From a virus (lineage: Duplodnaviria; Caudoviricetes): a stretch of DNA of 49,613 nucleotides. A program made the position numbers and the translations under genes. Under the pieces are notes generated by a model. That model saw nothing but the letters and a program-made list of their open reading frames with translations, searched no databases and was not told where the DNA came from. Below, piece by piece: positions 28,239-49,613 of this stretch; position 1 is the stretch's first letter, and every line of letters begins with the position of its first letter. The stretch is taken from IMG/VR virus record IMGVR_UViG_3300022307_000003, positions 1 to 49,613 of that record; one strand, written 5' to 3'.

Positions 28239-28607
28239 ATGTTTATGCCAACGGTAAAAAAGTCGTGGATTTTCGATAAGTTGCAGATTCTCCTCCTAAA
28301 GGAGGAAGATCTCTGGGTCGCTCAATGCTTGGATCATGATGTTGCTTCCCAGGGCCCTGACATCCGCGGCGTTCTCCGTGCGTGGGAACATGCCTTTTTC
28401 GCGCAAGCCATGGCCAATATTGATGCTGGGATGGATCCCATGGAAAACGCGAGCGCGGCTCCAGAATTCTACTGGAAGAAATTCGATAGCGGACTGCGCC
28501 TCAGTGAGACTATAGCTGTCACAGGTGCTGCCGCCGACGAGCTTTCGCCGCCGCCAGTGCGGCTCAACCAACGTGACGGGTCGGCCTTTCGGCCTAAGTT
28601 TAAATAA
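28239..28607 (+). CDS. HicB-like (RNase H-fold) protein, orphan
   Basis: WVAQCLDHDVASQG..AAPEFYW; AAGGAG RBS; more AT-rich than its flanks. Confidence 0.7.
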   Translation: MFMPTVKKSWIFDKLQILLLKEEDLWVAQCLDHDVASQGPDIRGVLRAWEHAFFAQAMANIDAGMDPMENASAAPEFYWKKFDSGLRLSETIAVTGAAADELSPPPVRLNQRDGSAFRPKFK

Positions 28608-28801: not shown

Positions 28802-29060
28802 TTAATGGGTCGCATTGTCGCCCCCGAGCATTGCCTTGGCGGCACCTAGCGCGCCAGAGCTAAGGCGCCAGCCGCGTCCCGTTCCTACGCGCGTTTGGAT
28901 TAGCACCGCGTTGTCGTCATTGTCGGCGAGCCCGACGCGCACCGCCCACTTCTTCACGGCCACGGGAACACCGCGCCCACGGGCGCCACCAAGTAAGTTG
29001 GCTCAGTCCCGGCGGTTATCCCGGTTTCTCCTGCCGTGACTAGCTCGCGCAGCAGGATCA
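28802..29060 (-). pseudogene. Frameshifted gene fragment
   Basis: LILLRELVTAGETGITAG continues in another frame as ANLLGGARGRGVPVAVKKWAVRVGL...GRGWRLS...NATH-stop. Confidence 0.4.
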
Positions 29061-29264
29061 ATTAGGGTATTCCACGTCAGCAGCGGCCTTGTGAAGCGTC
29101 TCGCGGCGGCAATGCAGTAGCCTGGCAAACTCTGACCAGCCGCCAACCTCAGAGCTTATCTCCCACATGGCGCGCCTCACGTTGGCTTGCTCGCGGGCTG
29201 TGAGGCTGTAGGCGCGACGGGCCTTTGCTCGACGCCAAGTCTCGGTTTCCTTGAGGATGGTCAT
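29058..29264 (-). CDS. HTH-like protein, probably truncated
   Basis: GGAGGG RBS; LTAREQANVRRAM..GGWSEFARLL helix-turn-helix pattern. Confidence 0.5.
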   Translation of the reverse strand: MTILKETETWRRAKARRAYSLTAREQANVRRAMWEISSEVGGWSEFARLLHCRRETLHKAAADVEYPN

Positions 29265-29317
29265 CCCTCCAGCTTGGTCATCCTTGAGCGGTCAAGCAAG
29301 CGTGCAGGGTGGGCAAA

Positions 29318-29451: not shown

Positions 29452-29682
29452 CTAGCGCTTCATGTCCCTGACCATCGCAGCTGTCAGCAGCTCCCGCACC
29501 AGCGCGGCGGCTGGCTTGCCATGCGTAGCTGCCCACGCGCCTATCGCGGCCCGCAGATCCGCCGTCATTGGCACGACCAGGCGGGCGGTCATGTTGTTCG
29601 TGCCCGGCTTGCGACCAGCGCCATCACGGCGCCCGCCTGAGTTAGCGCGGGCGCCGCCGTGGGTGGATTGCTTAGCGACCAT
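29452..29682 (-). CDS. RHH-like DNA-binding protein with GGARxxAGRK N-terminus
   Basis: MVAKQSTHGGARANSGGRRDGAGRKP, then a beta strand and two helices (AAALVRELL). Confidence 0.65.
   Translation of the reverse strand: MVAKQSTHGGARANSGGRRDGAGRKPGTNNMTARLVVPMTADLRAAIGAWAATHGKPAAALVRELLTAAMVRDMKR
29625..29666. repeat. 42-bp direct repeat, copy 1 (palindromic core)
   Basis: 41/42 identical to 32737-32778. Confidence 0.9.
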
Positions 29683-30067: not shown

Positions 30068-30279
30068 GACGCCACCTCGAAGCCGATGTCCGCGGGGTCT
30101 ACCTCTGTGATGGTGCCATCAGTATCGACCTGGTAGAGCACGTCGTCGTCCTCCAGTATCACGCTCTCCTCGCGGTCCGCAGCCATGCGGCGTGCACACT
30201 GGATAGCCTCGTCGCACACTACCGATCCCTGGAGTCCACACGTCAGTTCCATTGCGTCCATGTCGTATATCGTTGCCAT
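30064..30279 (-). CDS. Small acidic hypothetical protein
   Basis: ATG at 30279 after AAGGAG; 71 aa, D/E-rich. Confidence 0.75.
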   Translation of the reverse strand: MATIYDMDAMELTCGLQGSVVCDEAIQCARRMAADREESVILEDDDVLYQVDTDGTITEVDPADIGFEVAS

Positions 30280-30351
30280 CGTCTCTCTCCTTGTTTCGGT
30301 GGCCGTCCCTGGCCACACAAAGACAATGACACTTGCTGGCTGGGGTGTCAA
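30280..30351 (-). promoter_or_regulatory. Early promoter/leader, copy 1
   Basis: TTGACA-17-CATTGT, then GTGGCC-AGGGAC-GGCCAC hairpin and RBS; overlapping inverted repeat TGACAC-N12-GTGTCA. Confidence 0.8.
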
Positions 30352-30382
30352 CAGAAATCAGCAAGGCGCTGTTGTTTTTTCG

Positions 30383-30422
30383 CCCGCCTCTACTGCCTCA
30401 CGGCGCAGGGGCGGGTCTTTTT
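30383..30422 (+). terminator. Intrinsic terminator, plus-strand orientation
   Basis: CCCGCCTCT...AGGGGCGGG followed by TCTTTTT. Confidence 0.6.
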
Positions 30423-30426
30423 GCGT

Positions 30427-30984
30427 TTAATTCGGCTCTGCAATCTTGCGCCCAGCAGTGAGTTCGCGGGTGAAGTGCTCGCGCATCATGGCTTTCAGCC
30501 CGTCCAGGGCTTTCCTGGGGCAGCCGGTATCGATATACGAGCCCATTCCGAGGTCGCGAAACTCGTCAACGATAGCAAGCCACCCACCCGCGCCCCACGG
30601 CATAATCGAGTAACCCCACTGCAGCGCCATCAGCCGCTCCACCTCTGCCTCAATCTCAGCAGGCGACGGGCCTTTGTGGGGCTCGATGCGATGCGCCTTC
30701 AAAGAGATGGGGTCACAGAGCGCGACAAGCTTTTCCAGCATCCCCCACACAGTAGATATTCTTGGCCCGTTCCAGTGGGCGCGCTGAATGACCAGGACGC
30801 GGCCAATCTCCCGCAAACACGCGTCAATCTCTACCTGCTTCGGGTCGGGTATCGGCACGATGTGATGGCCGTGGGCGGCGATTTTATCACGAATGGCTGC
30901 GCCGTCCACTCTGCTAGGCGTGCCGGTGTCCATCGTCGCAAGGTATGCAATTTTACCCAATGTGTGGTTATCTAGCTCATCCAT
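30427..30984 (-). CDS. Hypothetical protein
   Basis: GGAGG RBS before ATG at 30984. Confidence 0.65.
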   Translation of the reverse strand: MDELDNHTLGKIAYLATMDTGTPSRVDGAAIRDKIAAHGHHIVPIPDPKQVEIDACLREIGRVLVIQRAHWNGPRISTVWGMLEKLVALCDPISLKAHRIEPHKGPSPAEIEAEVERLMALQWGYSIMPWGAGGWLAIVDEFRDLGMGSYIDTGCPRKALDGLKAMMREHFTRELTAGRKIAEPN

Positions 30985-31030: not shown

Positions 31031-31059
31031 TTGACGCTGCCTGCCAGGTCCGCTATTGT
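31031..31059 (+). promoter_or_regulatory. Sigma70-type promoter antisense to the early arm
   Basis: TTGACG-17 bp-TATTGT. Confidence 0.7.
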
Positions 31060-31064
31060 GCCTT

Positions 31065-31166
31065 GAGTAAGGCTACCGCTGTTTGTTCAACCTGGCTCCC
31101 TCCTCCATCGTTCTATCATCCCTTGCATCGGCCCGTCAGCGTCTTCGGACTCTGGCGGGCCTTTTT
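31065..31166 (+). ncRNA. Putative ~100-nt small regulatory RNA
   Basis: Intergenic, with its own promoter, a C/U-rich core and a terminal terminator hairpin. Confidence 0.6.
31130..31166 (+). terminator. Intrinsic terminator of the putative sRNA
   Basis: GGCCCGTCAG-CGTC-TTCG-GACT-CTGGCGGGCC-TTTTT. Confidence 0.8.
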
Positions 31167-31175
31167 GCAATTGTG

Positions 31176-31394
31176 CTACTGACTCGATTCGCGTTCAGCC
31201 TCTACCAAAAAAGCGGCGGCCCTGTGCCAAGCACACGCAAACCCACCTATCACGGATTGACCGCTCGGTACGCATTCCACGCACGCATGGTCTGTCACGC
31301 GGTCATACCTGGTAAGGCGATGGGCCATCACCAGGGCCAGCTCATGCAACCTATCCGATTCCGTCTCACCGCGGTACCAATCTTTCATATTCAC
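31176..31394 (-). CDS. Small Cys/His-containing hypothetical protein
   Basis: GGAGGTG RBS; CVEC...CAWH; start at 31394 or 31388. Confidence 0.65.
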   Translation of the reverse strand: MNMKDWYRGETESDRLHELALVMAHRLTRYDRVTDHACVECVPSGQSVIGGFACAWHRAAAFLVEAERESSQ

Positions 31395-31406
31395 ACCTCC
31401 TATCAG

Positions 31407-31480
31407 TGCTACCGGCTGGGATTGAACCAGCGACCACCGCCTTATAAGAGCGGCGCTCTAACCAACTGAGCTACGGTAGC
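31407..31480 (-). tRNA. tRNA-Ile(UAU)
   Basis: Acceptor stem GCTACCG/CGGTAGC plus discriminator A; D-arm AGCTCAGTTGGTTAGAGC; anticodon arm CCGCT-CTTATAA-GGCGG; T-loop GGTTCAATCC; CCA not encoded. Confidence 0.92.
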
Positions 31481-31487
31481 GGGTACG

Positions 31488-31799
31488 TCACTCCACCGAC
31501 TTTCCCAGCACACCACGCACAATGCCATCGTCATCAATGTCAAGAAATGTGATGGCTCCATCTGGCACAGGCTCTACATGCAGCCCGCTTAGCAGCTCAG
31601 GGGCCAGGTGTACGCACAGCACGCTGCGGACAAATCCAGGCACCGTTTGCCCGCCCACTGCCGCCTTCGCTTTCAGCTCCGCATCCATCGCTCGCGTGAT
31701 GAACGTCGTCATCCGCACTGACAGCGGGTCCGCAGACGGCTTGCGCCCAGCGCCAACTCGCGGGCCACCGCGTTTGCTTTTGGGTTTCTTGGGGGGCAT
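31488..31799 (-). CDS. RHH-like DNA-binding protein with GGPRVGAGRK N-terminus
   Basis: VRMTTFIT strand, then helices (VPGFVRSVL); AGGAGG RBS. Confidence 0.7.
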   Translation of the reverse strand: MPPKKPKSKRGGPRVGAGRKPSADPLSVRMTTFITRAMDAELKAKAAVGGQTVPGFVRSVLCVHLAPELLSGLHVEPVPDGAITFLDIDDDGIVRGVLGKSVE

Positions 31800-32196: not shown

Positions 32197-32511
32197 TTAC
32201 CCCTCATCGCCCAGGTAGAAGTCGCCACCCATGCGCGCCTGAGCCAGCGCCCGCTCGGCCGAACCTTCTCCGTTGTCGCGGTCATACAGCGCCACAAGCA
32301 CGTCATCTGAACCGATGTCACACTTGATTACACGGCCATTCACGTAGTCGAATGACATTCGAGGATCCTGCTTGATGAGCGCCTTCGCTGAGTGTTCAGA
32401 GAGGTCTCCCGGCATTTCATGAAAAACCCCGAGCCCCTGAACGCGTGCCCCACGATATAGTGCGCGCAATACTGCAACCTTGCTCAACCCTGCAATGCTC
32501 ACTGTTCCCAT
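32197..32511 (-). CDS. Conserved phage hypothetical protein
   Basis: ISIAGLSK-like start, FDYVNGRVIK, LYDRDNGEG. Confidence 0.7.
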   Translation of the reverse strand: MGTVSIAGLSKVAVLRALYRGARVQGLGVFHEMPGDLSEHSAKALIKQDPRMSFDYVNGRVIKCDIGSDDVLVALYDRDNGEGSAERALAQARMGGDFYLGDEG

Positions 32512-32523
32512 CGCTCCATCCTC

Positions 32524-32709
32524 CTATTGGCTGTCACTCACGCGGACAAGCACCGCATGCCCAGTATCTGCATCTCGCCACTCTCCACCTGAACTTGGGA
32601 TCAGGTGTGGGCGCTCAAACTCTAGCACGTCGCACATGTCAAAGAATTCTTCTACACTGTCAAATTCTTCGCACACATTGTCATACAAATCGCTGATACA
32701 CTTGAGCAT
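32524..32709 (-). CDS. Small acidic hypothetical protein
   Basis: AGGAGG RBS; EEFDSVEEFFD. Confidence 0.7.
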   Translation of the reverse strand: MLKCISDLYDNVCEEFDSVEEFFDMCDVLEFERPHLIPSSGGEWRDADTGHAVLVRVSDSQ

Positions 32710-32736: not shown

Positions 32737-32778
32737 CACGGCGCCCGCCTGAGTTAGCGCGGGGGCCGCCGTGGGTGG
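32737..32778. repeat. 42-bp direct repeat, copy 2 (intergenic)
   Basis: 41/42 identical to 29625-29666. Confidence 0.9.
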
Positions 32779-32783
32779 GTGGG

Positions 32784-32996
32784 CTATTCACCGTCCTCGC
32801 CATCCTCGTTCTCTAGCAGCGCGGCGCGCACTTGCGCAGGCTTTAGTTCTGACATAACGGTACTGAAGAAGACCCACGCGTCGCCCCGTCTTTGAAAAAC
32901 TTTGACTGCCTGCACAGTCGACGCGCTCGCGACTAGATAGTCGCCTTCCGCTCGATAAGAATATTCGCCGTGCCTGAATTCGATGTCGTTGCTCAT
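32784..32996 (-). CDS. Small hypothetical protein with acidic tail
   Basis: ATG at 32996 after GAGGAG. Confidence 0.7.
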   Translation of the reverse strand: MSNDIEFRHGEYSYRAEGDYLVASASTVQAVKVFQRRGDAWVFFSTVMSELKPAQVRAALLENEDGEDGE

Positions 32997-33069
32997 TGTC
33001 GGTTCTCCTCTTAGTGGCGGCCTTCCCTGACCACACAAAGACAATGCACCATCCTTTGATTGGGTGCAA
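32997..33069 (-). promoter_or_regulatory. Early promoter/leader, copy 2
   Basis: TTGCAC-17-CATTGT, then GTGGTC-AGGGAA-GGCCGC hairpin and RBS; inverted repeat TGCACC-N12-GGTGCA. Confidence 0.78.
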
Positions 33070-33909: not shown

Positions 33910-34106
33910 AGCGCTACCCCTTCGATGGCGACAATAGCCTCCTCGCGAAGCCCGTTGCGAAGGAACACAAGGCGCCCGCTGCGCGTGTTGCGAATCAAGG
34001 AGTGCATCCCGCCACGCTTGCCGTTGAGCCAAACAGCTGCGCCGGGATTGCTCATGTCGACGGTCTTCGTGGTCGTGAACTTGCTGCCGTTGATGCTGAT
34101 TTCCAT
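33906..34106 (-). CDS. Small hypothetical protein
   Basis: ATG at 34106 after AGGGAG. Confidence 0.7.
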   Translation of the reverse strand: MEISINGSKFTTTKTVDMSNPGAAVWLNGKRGGMHSLIRNTRSGRLVFLRNGLREEAIVAIEGVAL

Positions 34107-34181
34107 CGCCTTGCTCCCTGTTTCCCGCCGGTCATCCCTGCCGACAAGAGAAACTATGCCACCATCTTTGATTGGGTGCAA
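34107..34181 (-). promoter_or_regulatory. Early promoter/leader, copy 3
   Basis: TTGCAC-17-CATAGT, then GTCGG-CAGGGATGA-CCGGC hairpin and RBS. Confidence 0.78.
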
Positions 34182-34238: not shown

Positions 34239-34490
34239 TCAAGCGTCTGCCCTATGGAAATACGTCCGCACTCGCCATGGCTTGTCGCCCTCCTCGCCTG
34301 TGTACTCGTAGCCGCTCATCGGGCAACCCTCCACTGCGCTGACCCAGCTGAGGCATGCTCCGTGGCTGACGACGTACAGCGCCCTGTGGGCTCCCTCGCT
34401 GTGCGCAATCTCAGCGGTGGCGCCATGGTCAAGGCTCCAGTCTATCGCATCCATCGCCGCGGTGAGCGCAGTGCGATTTGCGTCAGGCAC
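34239..34490 (-). CDS. Hypothetical protein
   Basis: Operon-packed; GGAGAGG upstream. Confidence 0.5.
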   Translation of the reverse strand: MPDANRTALTAAMDAIDWSLDHGATAEIAHSEGAHRALYVVSHGACLSWVSAVEGCPMSGYEYTGEEGDKPWRVRTYFHRADA

Positions 34491-34830
34491 CTGTTAGCCT
34501 CTCCAACTTTTCTTCGATAGCATCACGCAGGAATTGCGCGACGGTTCCGCCTGCCACGGCTGCAGTCACTAGCGCGGCGGTGTCGTCGTCTACGTACGTG
34601 ACTAGCTGGACTGGACGAGGTGGCTTATCGATCGGACCGTGCGTCGCGTAGACATCCGCGGGCAGCTTCCGTTGCTCCGTGCGGTGACTGCAACTGTAGC
34701 GGAGCACCACAGCGTGGGCATCGATAGCGCACAACTCTTTTGTGGTCCGCCACTTCGCAGACGCGAGCACAGTCCCAGGCCCCCACCCGCGCGCTCGGCA
34801 TGTATCAGCGGCGTGGATCATGGTGCTCAT
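34483..34830 (-). CDS. Hypothetical protein with C-terminal RHH-like segment
   Basis: VQLVTYVDDD..TVAQFLRDAIEEKL. Confidence 0.6.
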   Translation of the reverse strand: MSTMIHAADTCRARGWGPGTVLASAKWRTTKELCAIDAHAVVLRYSCSHRTEQRKLPADVYATHGPIDKPPRPVQLVTYVDDDTAALVTAAVAGGTVAQFLRDAIEEKLERLTGA

Positions 34831-38107: not shown

Positions 38108-38362
38108 CTAGCAGCCGGAGCCGTCGCCGTAGCCGTTGCCGTAGCCGTTGCCGTTGCCGTCGCCGTTGCCGTTGCCGGAGCCGTCGCCGGAGCCGTTGCC
38201 GTTGCCGTCGCCGTAGCCGTTGCCGTAGCCGTTGCCGTCGCCGTTGCCGTCGCCGGAGCCGTTGCCGTTGCCGTTGCCGTCGCCGTTGCCGTCGCCGGAG
38301 CCGTTGCCGTTGCCGTCGCCGGAGCCGTTGCCGTCGCCGTTGCCGGAGCCGCGTCTACCCAT
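38108..38362 (-). CDS. (Gly-X)40 repeat protein
   Basis: ATG at 38362 overlaps the upstream gene end; MGRR then 40 GX dipeptides. Confidence 0.65.
   Translation of the reverse strand: MGRRGSGNGDGNGSGDGNGNGSGDGNGDGNGNGNGSGDGNGDGNGYGNGYGDGNGNGSGDGSGNGNGDGNGNGYGNGYGDGSGC
38111..38350 (-). repeat. 6-bp tandem repeat GGC(AAC/GAC/TCC/TAC) x40
   Basis: Read directly from the sequence. Confidence 0.95.
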
Positions 38363-40938: not shown

Positions 40939-42156
40939 TTACCCTTTCACACAAACGACCTGCTTTAACGTGTGCACAATGTCAACCAAGTCGCGCTGCG
41001 CATCCATCACGGCGTCGATGTCTTTATAGGCCATCGGAGTTTCATCGATCACGCCATCATCTTTCCGACATTCAACACCGGCCGTCGCCGCTTCGTGGTC
41101 CGCTACAGTAAATCGCTTCTTGGCTTCCGTGCGTGACATGGCACGGCCAGCCCCATGGCTGCAGCTGCAGAAGCTTTCATGGTTTCCTTTGCCGCGCACG
41201 ATGAATGAACGGGCGCCCATGCTGCCTGGTATGATGCCAAGCTCACCAGCCTTTGCGCTAACTGCACCCTTGCGGGTCAAAAAAACGTCCTTGCCATAGT
41301 GGTGCTCTAAAGACACGTAGTTGTGATGGCAGTTCACTGCGGTGTTGACGGTTGTGAATGGCCTAACCTTTCGCGTTCCCATGATGGCCAGCAGCGTTGA
41401 TTCCATCATGATGTCGCGGTTCACCTTGGCAAAATTCTGCGCCCACCCAACGGCAGACACGTAGTCACGAAAAGTATCACTCCCCTCATCTAGGTAGGAT
41501 AGGTTCTTGTCTGGTAGCTGTACCTGGTTCCGCCCCATGTCCTTTTTTGCCAGCGCGATGAAGTGGCTCCCAATGCGGTTCCCAACTCCGCGCGACCCGC
41601 TGTGCAACATCACCCACACGTGGCCGCGCTCATCTATGCAGACCTCGATGAAGTGGTTCCCGGTCCCGAGCGTTCCGAGGTGGGCTGCGTTGTTGCATTT
41701 CGACACGCCGGGGTGGCTTTCCGTGAGCAGCTCAAAACTTGGCAACATGGCTGCCCACTCACGTTGAACCCGCAGTGGCAAATCAGACCACGCGCCGCGG
41801 TCACCGCTCCCGCCGTTGTTCGTTCTGCCATGCGGCACTGCTTCCTCAATGTTGGAGCGCATGTCGTGAAGGTTGTCAGGCAAGTCGCTGGCCATCAGAG
41901 TGGTCTCGTGGGCTATCATGCCACAGCCAATGTCCACCCCGACCGCGGCGGGGATGATGGCGCCTACCGCTGGTATGACGCTGCCGACAGTGGCGCCCAT
42001 GCCCCAGTGCACATCAGGCATCGCCGCTACCCACTTGTGAATGAATGGCATTGACGCGATGTTTACGAGCTGTTGTTTCGCGGCGTCCTCCACTGGGACG
42101 CCCACGGTCCATGACTTGATGGGGACACCAGCGGATTCTATTGTTTCATAGTTCAC
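40939..42156 (-). CDS. rtcB: RtcB RNA ligase (3'-phosphate/5'-OH)
   Basis: MPDVH, GVDIGCG, GTLGTGNHFIE, HSGSRG, HHNY, RKGA, PGSMG, SHGAGR and AYKDID motifs. Confidence 0.96.
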   Translation of the reverse strand: MNYETIESAGVPIKSWTVGVPVEDAAKQQLVNIASMPFIHKWVAAMPDVHWGMGATVGSVIPAVGAIIPAAVGVDIGCGMIAHETTLMASDLPDNLHDMRSNIEEAVPHGRTNNGGSGDRGAWSDLPLRVQREWAAMLPSFELLTESHPGVSKCNNAAHLGTLGTGNHFIEVCIDERGHVWVMLHSGSRGVGNRIGSHFIALAKKDMGRNQVQLPDKNLSYLDEGSDTFRDYVSAVGWAQNFAKVNRDIMMESTLLAIMGTRKVRPFTTVNTAVNCHHNYVSLEHHYGKDVFLTRKGAVSAKAGELGIIPGSMGARSFIVRGKGNHESFCSCSHGAGRAMSRTEAKKRFTVADHEAATAGVECRKDDGVIDETPMAYKDIDAVMDAQRDLVDIVHTLKQVVCVKG

Positions 42157-43770: not shown

Positions 43771-44633
43771 TACTTGCCGCCTTTCACAAACCCATGCAAG
43801 TCAATGACGGCGCGTTCAATGCAAACGATCGCGTTGTGCAAAGCGTCAGAAGCTTCTTTTGACTTCACGTCTGGCGCAGCGATTGCTGATAGCTGCTCAG
43901 CAAACTTCGCCACCTTCTCCAAGTCAGGCGCCATCTCTTCGCGCAACTCGCGCTCGCGCTTCTCACGTTCTAGCTTAGCGATTCGGCGCTCCTCAGATTC
44001 TGCCTTCTCACGTTCAGTGCGAGCACGTTCCTCTTGCTCCGCTTGGATCTTGGCCAGCCGTTCGCGCTCCTCCATTTCCGCCTTGCGTACCGCATCATCG
44101 ACAGCGCGTTGCTTGGCCGCCAGCTCGTCACGTTCCGCATTCATCTTGGCGCGTTCTTCTTCCAGCGCCTCGCGTTCCGCACGTTGGCGCTCGCGTTCCT
44201 CAGCTAGCCGCGACTCCTCTGCCTCACGTTCCTTGCGCAGCCGTTCGTCTTCTTCTTCACGCTTGGCACGTAGCGCATCTTCGATTACTTTTCGCGCGGC
44301 CTCTTCACGTTCGCGTTTCTCGCGCGCCTTTTCGTCGTCGACCGCCTGCTTACTTAGCTTGAGCGGTTCCTCGATTTCTTCAAGCAGTCCGATCAACTGC
44401 TTTGCGGCCGAGTCGATACGCCTACCTTCCTCAAGGTGCACCGCCTTCTATTCTTTGCGTCGCCCCTCGATGCGCACGCGATGGTTGCGCAAGTCGGCAA
44501 TCGCCAATCGCGTTGGATCGTAGGCTTTTCTCGCATCCAGAAACGCGTACTTGTCGCGCATCTTATCGATTGCCTCAAGCGTCATGCTGTAAGGCGTTAG
44601 TGCATCACTGCTCACTGTTGCGGCATTTCCCAT
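43770..44633 (-). pseudogene. Coiled-coil protein interrupted by an in-frame TAG at 44448-44450
   Basis: RRKE*KAVHLEEGRRIDSAAK reads continuously in one frame. Confidence 0.7.
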
Positions 44634-45322
44634 CACCCACCGTCCTTCCCCGCCATCGGCGGCTTGATTGTCAACACGTTGCCGTCGATTGCGGCGATGG
44701 TTCCGAGTAGTACGATTGGCTTCGCGCGGCCGGTTCCTCTCCAGTACAATCGTTGACCATCTGACCAAACATTGTCGCCGATTACCCACCCGCCGGCGCT
44801 GACCGTTGAATCAACCCTCATCCACCCCACCGGCAGCTCGACGCTTGCGGGTGCCGCGATGGGCGGGAGGATACCATCCTTGCCCAGTGACCAGTACGCA
44901 GCTAACCACAGCTCCCGCTCCTCATCCGTGTACGGCGCGTCAGGGGGAGGTGGGTTGGCTTCACGCTCCCGCAGCGCTTCATTCTCACGCCTAACCGCAA
45001 GCTCGTTGGCGCGTGCTTTGTCAAGCTCCGATCGCAATTCGGCCGTACCTCGCTTCAGTCCACTGATTGTGCCGCGCATCACCTCGCGCCGCGACGCGGC
45101 TTCCTTGGCTTCTGCGCGCACCTCCGCAGTCTCACCAGCCGCGTACGCCTCCACCGCTTCCATCAGAGCGCCCATCTCACTTTGGACGCAGCGCTCCGCA
45201 TGCTCACTGACTGACATCGTCATGAGACACCTTTCCTCAGAGTTCTGCGCTGCCAGATACACAGGCCCATAGTGCCGCAGCAGTTCCAGCGCCGCCCTAC
45301 GCACGTCGTCAAGTGTCGTCAT
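44633..45322 (-). CDS. Hypothetical protein
   Basis: Operon-packed; central coiled coil. Confidence 0.6.
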   Translation of the reverse strand: MTTLDDVRRAALELLRHYGPVYLAAQNSEERCLMTMSVSEHAERCVQSEMGALMEAVEAYAAGETAEVRAEAKEAASRREVMRGTISGLKRGTAELRSELDKARANELAVRRENEALREREANPPPPDAPYTDEERELWLAAYWSLGKDGILPPIAAPASVELPVGWMRVDSTVSAGGWVIGDNVWSDGQRLYWRGTGRAKPIVLLGTIAAIDGNVLTIKPPMAGKDGG

Positions 45323-46250: not shown

Positions 46251-47183
46251 TTATATAGTTAGCCCGATTTCTGACAGGTCGTCAAATCCAAAGCGGTACG
46301 ATTGCGCGCGTGAATACCAGTACGGCGTTTCAATTATCATAGGATCGGCAGTCGCGGCCGAGTCGTAGTCTGGCCACGCACCTGCATGCATGCACGCATC
46401 CCAGACATCGATGGCACGTTGCCACTGGGCGCGGGCGATGTCCATGTCTTGTTCGGACGGTCGCACCCTGGACACCGCGAAAGGCGGAGCTGACTCAAAG
46501 AACACCCACCGAAATTCAACGGTGCCTGCAAGCTCAGGGAACACCGCGCTCAGCCCTGACGTGTATGCGGCTGCCTGTACTGGGTAGCGATACCTCGCCA
46601 TTGCTGTTGAAATTTCTTCAGGAGCTGCTGACACACAGCTTTTTAGATCCGTTATCACGTGGCCCTGAACATAGTCAACCTTTGCTCTGCATTGCACCTT
46701 GCGCCCGCTACCAGCAACCTCCTCCCATATGATAACTTGCTCTGCCTTGCCATCCGAGAAGTGGACCCCTTTATACCCCATTCGCCTCTTGAGAGCCCGC
46801 ACGGTTGCGTCGTTGTCTTGCTCGTCAGTAAAAAGCACAGGTATTTTCCCGGCTGTCCGGATGGCGTCGCGCATCTCTTGGGCCACTTTGGTTTTGTAGT
46901 TTTCGACGCCCTCCGGGATGACCATGCGGTGATCGTTACCAGTGCCGAGCAGCCCAGCATGCATAACGGTGCCCCGCTCCATGGCGGCTGTCGGCTTGCT
47001 GCGCTCACCACCAAGGCGCGGGTGAAGAAGAAACGCATGCGCTGGGCTTTTAGCGTCCAGCACTTTCGCCATTGATGCCGACAGCGAAGGCACTCGGCAC
47101 GGGTCCGCGTGGTACTCGTCATCGCTCATGGGACCGACCCATGCTGTGCCGCTGAGCCCATTTTCTCTGATGGGGAGCTTCAT
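46251..47183 (-). CDS. Exonuclease VIII/RecE-like PD-(D/E)xK nuclease (DUF3799-like)
   Basis: DEYHAD..LSAS..SPAH, GTVMH, CRAKVD, DLKS and YPVQAAAY motifs. Confidence 0.9.
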   Translation of the reverse strand: MKLPIRENGLSGTAWVGPMSDDEYHADPCRVPSLSASMAKVLDAKSPAHAFLLHPRLGGERSKPTAAMERGTVMHAGLLGTGNDHRMVIPEGVENYKTKVAQEMRDAIRTAGKIPVLFTDEQDNDATVRALKRRMGYKGVHFSDGKAEQVIIWEEVAGSGRKVQCRAKVDYVQGHVITDLKSCVSAAPEEISTAMARYRYPVQAAAYTSGLSAVFPELAGTVEFRWVFFESAPPFAVSRVRPSEQDMDIARAQWQRAIDVWDACMHAGAWPDYDSAATADPMIIETPYWYSRAQSYRFGFDDLSEIGLTI

Positions 47184-47431
47184 TTGCGCAACCCCCCATC
47201 CATGTCGCGTAGCAAGGTGCACGCGCAGGAATACGCTCCTACACCAGACTCAAAAATTGCTGACGCTGACTGAAGTTCGCCAAGGCCGTTCAGTGGCCTA
47301 CCGTTTTCAAGGCACCTCTCCACGTCGGAAAGAATTGCCTCGATGTGCCCGATTGCAGTTCGTATTTGCCGCTCTGCCGCGGCCTTCCGTTGTTCGATCA
47401 GTCTCCTAGTTTCGTCAGCATCACTCACCAC
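47180..47431 (-). CDS. Hypothetical protein
   Basis: Overlapping neighbours. Confidence 0.55.
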   Translation of the reverse strand: MVSDADETRRLIEQRKAAAERQIRTAIGHIEAILSDVERCLENGRPLNGLGELQSASAIFESGVGAYSCACTLLRDMDGGLRK

Positions 47432-47696
47432 TCACCTCCATCTCATCCACAGCATCCGCAAACGCCTCCAACCCGTCATCCCAAAACGCGCGCAGCGCCT
47501 CACACTTGTCATCATGGCACAGGTCCTCGCGAAACACGCGCAACCGTTCGCCCCATGCGTCTGCCTGCTCACGGTGATTGCGTGTTCGCGTCCACACGGC
47601 AGACTGCAGGTCGTCCACTGCATCACCGTAGTGATCGTGCTCGTTGAATTCTACGTCATCGTGCGGAGTGAGGCATGGTTCAGTTGTGATTTTCAT
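47421..47696 (-). CDS. Acidic hypothetical protein
   Basis: ATG at 47696 overlaps the upstream stop. Confidence 0.6.
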   Translation of the reverse strand: MKITTEPCLTPHDDVEFNEHDHYGDAVDDLQSAVWTRTRNHREQADAWGERLRVFREDLCHDDKCEALRAFWDDGLEAFADAVDEMEVSGE

Positions 47697-49085: not shown

Positions 49086-49369
49086 CACTCACCACCGTCC
49101 TCGATGGCCTGCTCGATCGCGGCGCGGAATGCCTTGTTGTATTCAGCGCAGGCTGTCTCGAATTCTTCGGTCACGTTGTCGTCCGCATCAACGTACTCGA
49201 CGCCCAGAACGCGCGCCGCGTCATGGTAGCCGAGCGCATTGATGAGCAGCTCATCCGCGCCCATGGCTTCCCGCGCGGCGTCCTCCCAATAGCTGCGCGG
49301 GTTGTCAGCCATCCACTCCTGCGCGTCGTTGTAGCCCTCGATTTGTGCCTTGCTGGTTCGCGTTGTCAT
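49085..49369 (-). CDS. Acidic hypothetical protein, first gene of the leftward operon
   Basis: AGGAGG RBS; D/E-rich. Confidence 0.75.
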   Translation of the reverse strand: MTTRTSKAQIEGYNDAQEWMADNPRSYWEDAAREAMGADELLINALGYHDAARVLGVEYVDADDNVTEEFETACAEYNKAFRAAIEQAIEDGGE

Positions 49370-49439
49370 TCTGCCATCCTCCTGCGTCGGTCATCCCTGC
49401 CGACTCCCCAACTGTATGCCCTGGGCCGTGCAGTATCAA
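49370..49439 (-). promoter_or_regulatory. Early promoter/leader, copy 4 (main leftward promoter)
   Basis: TTGATA-17-TACAGT, then GTCGG-CAGGGATGA-CCGAC hairpin and AGGAGG. Confidence 0.8.
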
Positions 49440-49500
49440 GCTTTTTTGTTTGAAAAGAAAACCTGCAGGACGATTTCCTAGGAGACCGCACGTCGCCCCC

Positions 49501-49530
49501 TTGACACGCTAAACCGTCCCGCGTATCCAT
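49501..49530 (+). promoter_or_regulatory. Divergent rightward promoter
   Basis: TTGACA-17-TATCCA(T). Confidence 0.55.
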
Positions 49531-49536
49531 GGCATC

Positions 49537-49613
49537 ATGGACGCATACGACAGATTGGCGGAATGGGTGGCGTGGACGGGCGACAGCCAGCAGGTGGTCG
49601 CTGGCGTGCTCGA
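49537..49613 (+). CDS. Cro/XRE-like HTH protein, cut by the window edge, probably leaderless
   Basis: MDAYDRLAEWVAWTGDSQQVVAGVL; ATG lies about 7 nt after the -10; no SD. Confidence 0.55.
   Translation, partial: MDAYDRLAEWVAWTGDSQQVVAGVL

Follow-up and report, generated by a model that had tools for sequence, protein, structure and literature searches.

A segment of an uncultured phage genome has the anatomy of a stand-alone small-RNA gene, and we tentatively read its predicted product as an Hfq-independent trans-antisense RNA directed against some of the phage's own early gene starts (probability roughly 0.45). The phage record comes from sediment and is 96% complete; all 49,613 of its bases were analyzed, and this whole stretch is called the window. 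Terminase, capsid, and tail genes occupy the + strand to about 28.6 kb, and the - strand carries small early and replication genes from 49.4 down to 29 kb. The unit lies within this minus-strand arm and is oriented along the + strand. Its parts and its two flanking genes are as follows.

31031..31059, + strand: sigma70-type promoter of the early-promoter class, TTGACG-17-TATTGT, read from the sequence
31065..31166, + strand: predicted small RNA of about 102 nt, its start inferred from the -10 spacing
31091..31126, + strand: unpaired C/U-rich pairing core (MFE 0.0), containing the anti-SD CUCCCUCCUCC
31091-31106, + strand: core part CCTGGCTCCCTCCTCC (coordinates checked)
31103-31109, + strand: CUCCAUC at the core center, the mirror of GAUGGAG
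31116-31123, + strand: TCATCCCT (RNA UCAUCCCU), the mirror of the L3/L4 loop
31130..31166, + strand: intrinsic terminator, with a hairpin (31130-31161) that has a C(UUCG)G loop and a U.G wobble, and a U5 tail (T5 at 31162-31166)
30427..30984, - strand: flanking gene, 185 aa, homologous only to itself; GAUGGAGG is present at its start, also a predicted site (-15.6)
31176..31388, - strand: 70-aa flanking gene that converges on the terminator of the unit

The unit promoter shares its spacing and -10 type with four early promoters, those of the leaders L1-L4 described below. A strict promoter pattern, drawn up post hoc from these sites and missing L2 and L3, has four matches in the genome (L1, L4, the unit, and one within the RtcB gene), compared with 0.35 in 200 shuffles. 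The terminator is strand-specific, with -24.8 on the + strand versus -19.5 on the - strand and a U-tract on the + strand only. Ten units passed a promoter-plus-terminator screen of 1.87 Mb, comprising the window, relatives, and other phage loci; this unit had the strongest hairpin of the ten, and no other had a C/U-rich body (0.68 here). Its centroid fold consists of the terminator hairpin alone, and the core has no structure; exact mirror sequences of the leaders, in contrast, adopt folds of -3.7 to -10.4. The motif TCATCCCT occurs four times on the + strand of the genome (29261, 31116, 34132, and 49391) and not at all on the - strand.

A + strand ORF at 31083-31469 (128 codons) was considered as coding and rejected, with none of nine candidates homologous. 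The unit has the independent promoter, the intrinsic terminator, and the lack of an ORF that, at the sequence level, mark a trans-encoded anti-RBS sRNA. It is probably a real, uncatalogued small-RNA gene and is likely to be transcribed. Promoter, core, and terminator bear out the proposal of an earlier sequence-only reading that a separate + strand small-RNA unit lies here, and the positions it gave for the promoter, core parts, hairpin, U5, and L3/L4 motifs all check. In a DNA sequencing run, possibly of the source sample, the unit was covered with 0 differences and no variants.

Just behind early promoter L1 lies another + strand terminator (30381-30423, -24 kcal/mol, T5), with no + strand promoter found upstream; it could terminate a transcript antisense to L1 or serve as an insulator. 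Such hairpins thus exist here without a visible RNA gene, which counts against the preferred reading. A tRNA called as Ile (anticodon TAT) is found at 31406-31480 on the - strand. A Gly-Asp/Asn repeat ORF and an RtcB RNA ligase gene are found at 38108-38362 and 40939-42156 (-), respectively. On the + strand, a lone ORF at 28239-28607 has no Pfam or PHROG match and two CAGGGATG motifs upstream (28072 and 28154); we take it to resemble HicB antitoxins. Three small - strand ORFs near cassette ends (29452-29679, 31488-31799, and 34483-34830) resemble ribbon-helix-helix regulators, and a 59-nt remnant of ORF 29452-29679 at 32737-32795 is a sign of cassette shuffling.

The four leaders to which the core had been compared are laid out below.

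30277..30351, - strand: L1, early promoter (-35 at 30351), hairpin 30299-30316 with an AGGGAC hexaloop, SD, and ATG
32994..33069, - strand: L2, early promoter (-35 at 33069), hairpin 33017-33034 with an AGGGAA hexaloop, SD, and ATG
34104..34181, - strand: L3, early promoter (-35 at 34181), hairpin 34126-34146 with an AGGGAU loop, SD, and ATG; predicted two-part target (-17.6)
49367..49439, - strand: L4, early promoter (-35 at 49439), hairpin 49386-49404 with an AGGGAU loop, SD, and ATG; predicted two-part target (-20.4)

Each runs in the order promoter, 6-7 nt, C-AGGGAN-G hairpin, SD, and ATG. On the + strand, L3 reads CCTTGCTCCCT (34109-34119), 12 nt, and then TCATCCCT, and L4 reads TCCTCC, 8 nt, and then TCATCCCT. 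The genome contains exactly four hairpins of the form C-ANGGAN-G with at least five more pairs, each at a leader; at this threshold, which was chosen post hoc, 100 shuffles gave a mean of 0.64 hexaloop hairpins and a maximum of 3. The MFE structures of L3 and L4 close an extra A-U pair, so that GGGA is unpaired. By eye, the leader stems covary, the third pair being G-C versus C-G and the fifth C-G, U-G, or G-C. A second GGA overlaps the SD at a gap from the loop GGA of 15, 15, 17, and 11 nt in L1-L4. RsmE binds an ANGGAN hexaloop, and in glgC, as outlined in PMC7652899, CsrA bridges a hairpin site and an SD 10-63 nt apart. L1-L4 carry both of these sequence features of CsrA targets, the ANGGAN hexaloop and a second GGA at the SD within 10-63 nt, and are probably host CsrA operators. 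The AGGGA loops are thus likely CsrA-type hexaloops, a reason for their conservation that operates without any small RNA and that the sequence-only reading had not named. In the same DNA run, a second, lower-depth contig has a variant L4 promoter region (five differences over 49375-49613), and another contig extends past the window end at 49,613.

The phage itself encodes no CsrA gene. Among 120 listed capsid homologues, the sole taxon-named one is from a Myxococcota bacterium, and of 12 genome loci that contain capsid relatives, five bear Myxococcota or Deltaproteobacteria in their titles (best 52%). From these we infer a Myxococcota-like host, with the caveat that bins may contain stray phage contigs. 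Among five host-like Myxococcota genomes, which are incomplete and from which the true host may differ, CsrA was found in 4/5, FliW in 3/5, and Hfq in 0/5. CsrA and FliW form a single ORF in one of them (G032), adjoining what we take to be a flagellin-like gene.

Pairing energies were calculated with our own IntaRNA-like heuristic (ViennaRNA energies plus opening costs), not with IntaRNA itself. They were applied to an automatic set of 46 starts (55 minus nine judged false or duplicate) and to a hand-picked set of 45 early starts (46 listed, one dropped for a wrong coordinate). Outside the leaders, the leading predicted targets are these.

32487..32527, - strand: best predicted target, RBS region of gene 32197-32511 (gene 32511 below), -30.2 kcal/mol
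47409..47456, - strand: second predicted target, RBS region of gene 47180-47431, -24.2
44613..44653, - strand: fourth predicted target, RBS region of gene 44448-44633, -19.4

The predicted duplex at gene 32511 has 13 of 14 pairs over the SD and runs on across the AUG. This site is the top trans site among 1151 in the genome, and the unit is in turn the best non-self partner of the site among 1982 windows. As a best-of-all energy, it was reached by 0/300 core shuffles and 7/300 shuffles that kept the anti-SD. The gene encodes a widespread phage protein of unknown function (104 aa, 41 viral loci, invariant YDRDNGEG) with no Pfam or PHROG family. Its structural model (pLDDT 88) found no PDB match and only uncharacterized viral structural matches, and its Atlas matches were all under 0.9.

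The sequence-only reading had placed the four leaders at the top of the target list. This did not hold: an IntaRNA-type scan of starts with our heuristic gave the gene 32511 start, not a leader, as the best site. In the hand-picked set L4 ranked 3rd (-20.4), L3 5th (-17.6), L1 11th (-14.7), and L2 16th (-10.4) of 45, and in the automatic set L1-L4 ranked 12, 18, 6, and 3 of 46. Leaders-minus-mean energies were also reached by 31/300 core shuffles and 29/300 anti-SD-keeping shuffles. Two-part pairing, likewise proposed for all four leaders, survives for L3 and L4, where the predicted duplexes use both SD and loop; it is absent from gene 32511 and fails for L1 and L2, where 5 nt match the loop and the optimal duplex skips it, pairing only via the SD and start codon. 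When L4 was cut at its start site, another pairing register was preferred. The heptamer GATGGAG, mirrored at the core center, is the joint-commonest 7-mer of early start regions, present in 6/45 early, 1/20 late, and 6/414 host-like starts (Fisher p 4e-4, uncorrected). A further TCATCCCT with a near copy is seen at 29261-29290, at the start of a helix-turn-helix-like ORF (29058-29264), with weak predicted pairing (-9.5).

Shuffled and mirrored controls delimit what the core sequence contributes. The two-part match exceeds chance for L3 plus L4 only, where it was equaled by 5/300 core shuffles and 7/300 anti-SD-keeping shuffles, and the four-leader sum was reached by 10/300 and 14/300, respectively. 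Over the 45 early starts, mean pairing was beaten by 1/120 core and 2/120 anti-SD-keeping shuffles, and the mean of the top five by 0/120 and 11/120. The accessible core is therefore complementary to several RBSs beyond the level of shuffles, yet when real early starts were mirrored and given the terminator, 5-8/45 matched or beat the unit in mean, top-5, or best energy; any reversed ribosome site of this phage thus resembles a multi-target RNA. Of 41 mirrors of non-leader starts, none reached the unit's pairing with the four leaders, which upholds the view that the core resembles the leaders more closely than an ordinary ribosome site would. In a reverse scan of the whole genome, windowed differently, the mirrored start 38077, an ordinary one, beat the unit on the leaders (-78.6 vs -66.6 summed), and the unit was the second-best non-leader region for summed leaders among 1982 windows. 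Host-like starts had a mean energy of -6.9 vs -11.6 for early phage starts, and -7.9 vs -10.8 in a second comparison; this early-over-host preference is not special to the sequence, being reached by 36/120 core and 28/120 anti-SD-keeping shuffles. One of 411 host-like starts reached -30, which amounts to about a 10% chance among 45 genes and speaks against the preferred reading; three of 411 were at -20 or better, and 24/411 and 69/411 scored as well as L1 and L2, respectively.

Several other explanations account for parts of these data. The core may be what remains, after decay, of a fifth leader or of a ribosome site in a minus-strand read-through transcript, with the + strand RNA idle or limited to cis action on the intercistronic stretch from 31388 to 30984, where it would form a perfect duplex (-79); we regard this as somewhat unlikely. 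The minus-strand parts do stand in leader order (AGGGATGA, GGGAGCCAGG, TTG) and are 10/11 like L3, reversed real starts score like the unit, an orphan + strand terminator is present at 30381-30423, and promoter-stem-loop-SD cassettes are described as recombination joints in T4-type phages (PMC2839356). However, the hairpin arms have been lost while loop and SD are kept, no minus-strand promoter lies at the conserved leader spacing of 41-42 nt upstream, only ORFs of 5-13 codons follow, and the promoter and terminator both face the + direction and bracket the core exactly. The unit is accordingly not a working fifth leader, in keeping with the sequence-only reading, and the kept loop and SD, missing stem arms, and open core fit selection for an open antisense strand, although descent from a leader copy that has persisted neutrally may also account for them. 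That two-part binding, through loop plus SD, occurs at each of the four promoter-proximal leaders and silences four cassettes together is very unlikely in view of the leader ranks, the optimum L1 and L2 duplexes that omit the loop, the 24 and 69 host-like starts that equal the L1 and L2 scores, and a CsrA explanation for loop conservation. What speaks for it is a leader sum that just 10 and 14 of 300 shuffles reach, the failure of all 41 non-leader mirrors to do as well, the unit's second place among the 1982 windows, and the open L1 and L2 loops (0.0 and 0.3 kcal), which could form a 5-bp kiss.

An RNA whose anti-SD is aimed mainly at host mRNAs, for shut-off or re-tuning, would make the phage matches incidental. 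Expression at entry would suit a promoter of the early class, CUCCCUCCUCC is able to pair with every strong SD, and three host-like starts do reach -20; we nonetheless find this highly improbable, as host-like starts pair worse on average in both comparisons and GATGGAG and AGGGATGA are features of phage starts. The least probable possibility is that the working RNA is the minus strand, whose GGA-rich single-stranded stretch behind a hairpin would titrate CsrA and relieve the leaders. Here the three ANGGA motifs within about 30 nt lie outside hairpin loops, the GGA density is unexceptional (4 per 60 nt, common to many windows), and the strand has no promoter or U-tract, even though the leaders themselves are CsrA-type.

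In the preferred reading, of an antisense RNA against early starts, 31065-31166 would be a stand-alone gene read by the host sigma70-type polymerase, and the 5' two-thirds of its RNA would remain single-stranded. The RNA would pair in trans, without Hfq, across the SD and start codon of some early genes, gene 32511 most strongly, then 47431, L4, 44633, and L3, with L1 and L2 weak, and on L3 and L4 it would also invade the AGGGAU loop. Translation of the paired early cassettes would be dampened. Because the core mirrors the ribosome sites of several early genes, the RNA probably downregulates a group of those genes jointly, and because the leaders are probably host CsrA operators, their first genes would be under two brakes. 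The unit promoter is of the same class as those of its targets, so no obvious timing follows, a point against this reading. A distinctly unlikely extension would have the RNA read the CsrA operator loop plus SD, replace CsrA as the brake, and extend that brake to other early genes, with the host's CsrA-FliW flagellar switch gating the cassettes via the four glgC-type operators. If this were true, one RNA and one host protein would share a single operator to time early expression.

Searches for relatives returned no counterpart of the unit. No homologue was found in 224 loci at three mismatches; 50 genomes or records (of 78 first chosen) gave only chance matches of 21-24 nt, in 2/50; blastn against annotated phages gave only tRNA among the best 20 of 868 records; and blastn plus nhmmer over 183 loci gave a best unit match at E 0.25. 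The exact leader 23-mer had 0 matches in viral contigs, and the two-part core pattern had one match, in an unrelated context. The best capsid relative has 55% identity; the whole records of 16 capsid relatives contain neither a promoter-plus-AGGGA leader nor a C/U-rich unit, and no such unit was found in 41 loci around homologues of gene 32511. Elsewhere, the promoter-plus-leader pattern matched five viral sequences and 81 metagenome stretches. After removal of four loci of the phage's own record and one duplicate, 75 matches were folded; GGA was unpaired in 20, an SD plus start was present in 21, and both in 12. Leaders with the promoter plus CAGGGA in unrelated records (G028, L228, L243, and L303) have GGA in the loop and an SD, and in others the GGG is paired. 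No C/U-rich unit was seen in the 13 of these promoter-plus-leader contigs screened, most contigs being short. Rfam search of the genome found only tRNA, and six of the nine supplementary files of PMC10690425 gave 0 matches. Titles and abstract openings, with subscription journals largely outside this coverage, contain no description of the arrangement.

Two other leader repertoires were seen in the course of these searches. A 97-kb phage (G031, L125-L129) has >20 start-associated CCAAGGAGTGG motifs on one strand behind TTGACGAA promoters, with no reversed full copy of the motif among the matches listed. The AT-rich stretches G030:C1:13250-17943 and G029:C1:3619 carry repeated GTCGTCAGGGA...CCC-ATG leaders with no Rfam family.

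The weight of these results is limited by their coming from a single genome. If the preferred reading is true, one trans-acting RNA lowers a phage's own dispersed early genes, a role normally attributed to protein repressors; overlap with CsrA-type operators would then tie phage timing to the host flagellar state. It would also offer a specific way of testing why extended ribosome-site motifs are common to many phages and why a single reversed copy is retained, a question open since the report of the SAS of cluster K mycobacteriophages.

Among known systems, L1-L4 share with glgC-type CsrA/RsmE leaders the ANGGAN hexaloop hairpin and a downstream GGA in the SD 11-17 nt away (PMC7652899). They differ in that they sit on early mRNAs of a phage without CsrA, with CsrA binding predicted only, and, relative to the CsrA consensus outlined in the same source, their stems depart from the SELEX ACA/GU and their spacing falls below the >18 nt optimum. 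The PeSL cassettes of T4-type phages likewise repeat a sigma70 promoter, stem-loop, SD, and start before small orphan genes, but their hairpins are mostly located within or ahead of the promoter and function as terminators, whereas the L1-L4 hairpin begins at +1 and has an invariant loop; the words "antisense" and "CsrA" are absent from the main text of that paper (PMC2839356). A 2025 review of phage sRNAs covers VpdS, 24B_1, Sar, OOP, and aQ, and CsrA does not occur in it (PMC12197685). The nearest published hint is the SAS, an extended ribosome-site motif shared before non-structural genes, of which a single reversed copy is untied to a gene start (PMC3203893). The SAS is a 13-bp repeat with many copies, and the motifs here are shorter (GATGGAG at 6/45 starts, AGGGATGA in two leaders); the reversed SAS copy is not described as an RNA gene in the available text of that report.

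An unpaired pyrimidine-rich segment directed against the purine-rich ribosome sites of several mRNAs is shared with mycobacterial B11/6C (PMC10470900) and Campylobacter CJnc230 (PMC11187230), and B11 is a precedent for a chaperone-free C-rich anti-RBS RNA (PMC10470900). Those RNAs are chromosomal, conserved, and proven, and B11 uses two C-loops; the unit is a phage-borne singleton whose targets are, by prediction, the phage's own genes. Membership in the 6C/B11 family was rejected, with no Rfam match and no C-loop hairpins. C4 of phages P1 and P7 (RF01695) folds into a cloverleaf of three stems (about 77 nt) that RNase P releases from a longer transcript, with its pairing segments in loops a' and b' (PMC5320573; context in P1, PMC8198154). 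It is likewise a phage RNA with two pairing segments, one for the ribosome site and one upstream for specificity (PMC5320573), as predicted here for L3 and L4. The unit differs in having its own promoter and terminator, which make RNase P processing unnecessary, a single hairpin (the terminator), a linear unpaired core, and targets in distant operons. At E<=1 the RF01695 covariance model matched nothing in the genome, the cloverleaf is absent, and the unit was rejected as a C4 member, in agreement with the sequence-only reading. Belonging to neither family, the unit would act most like C4 on L3 and L4 and most like B11 overall.
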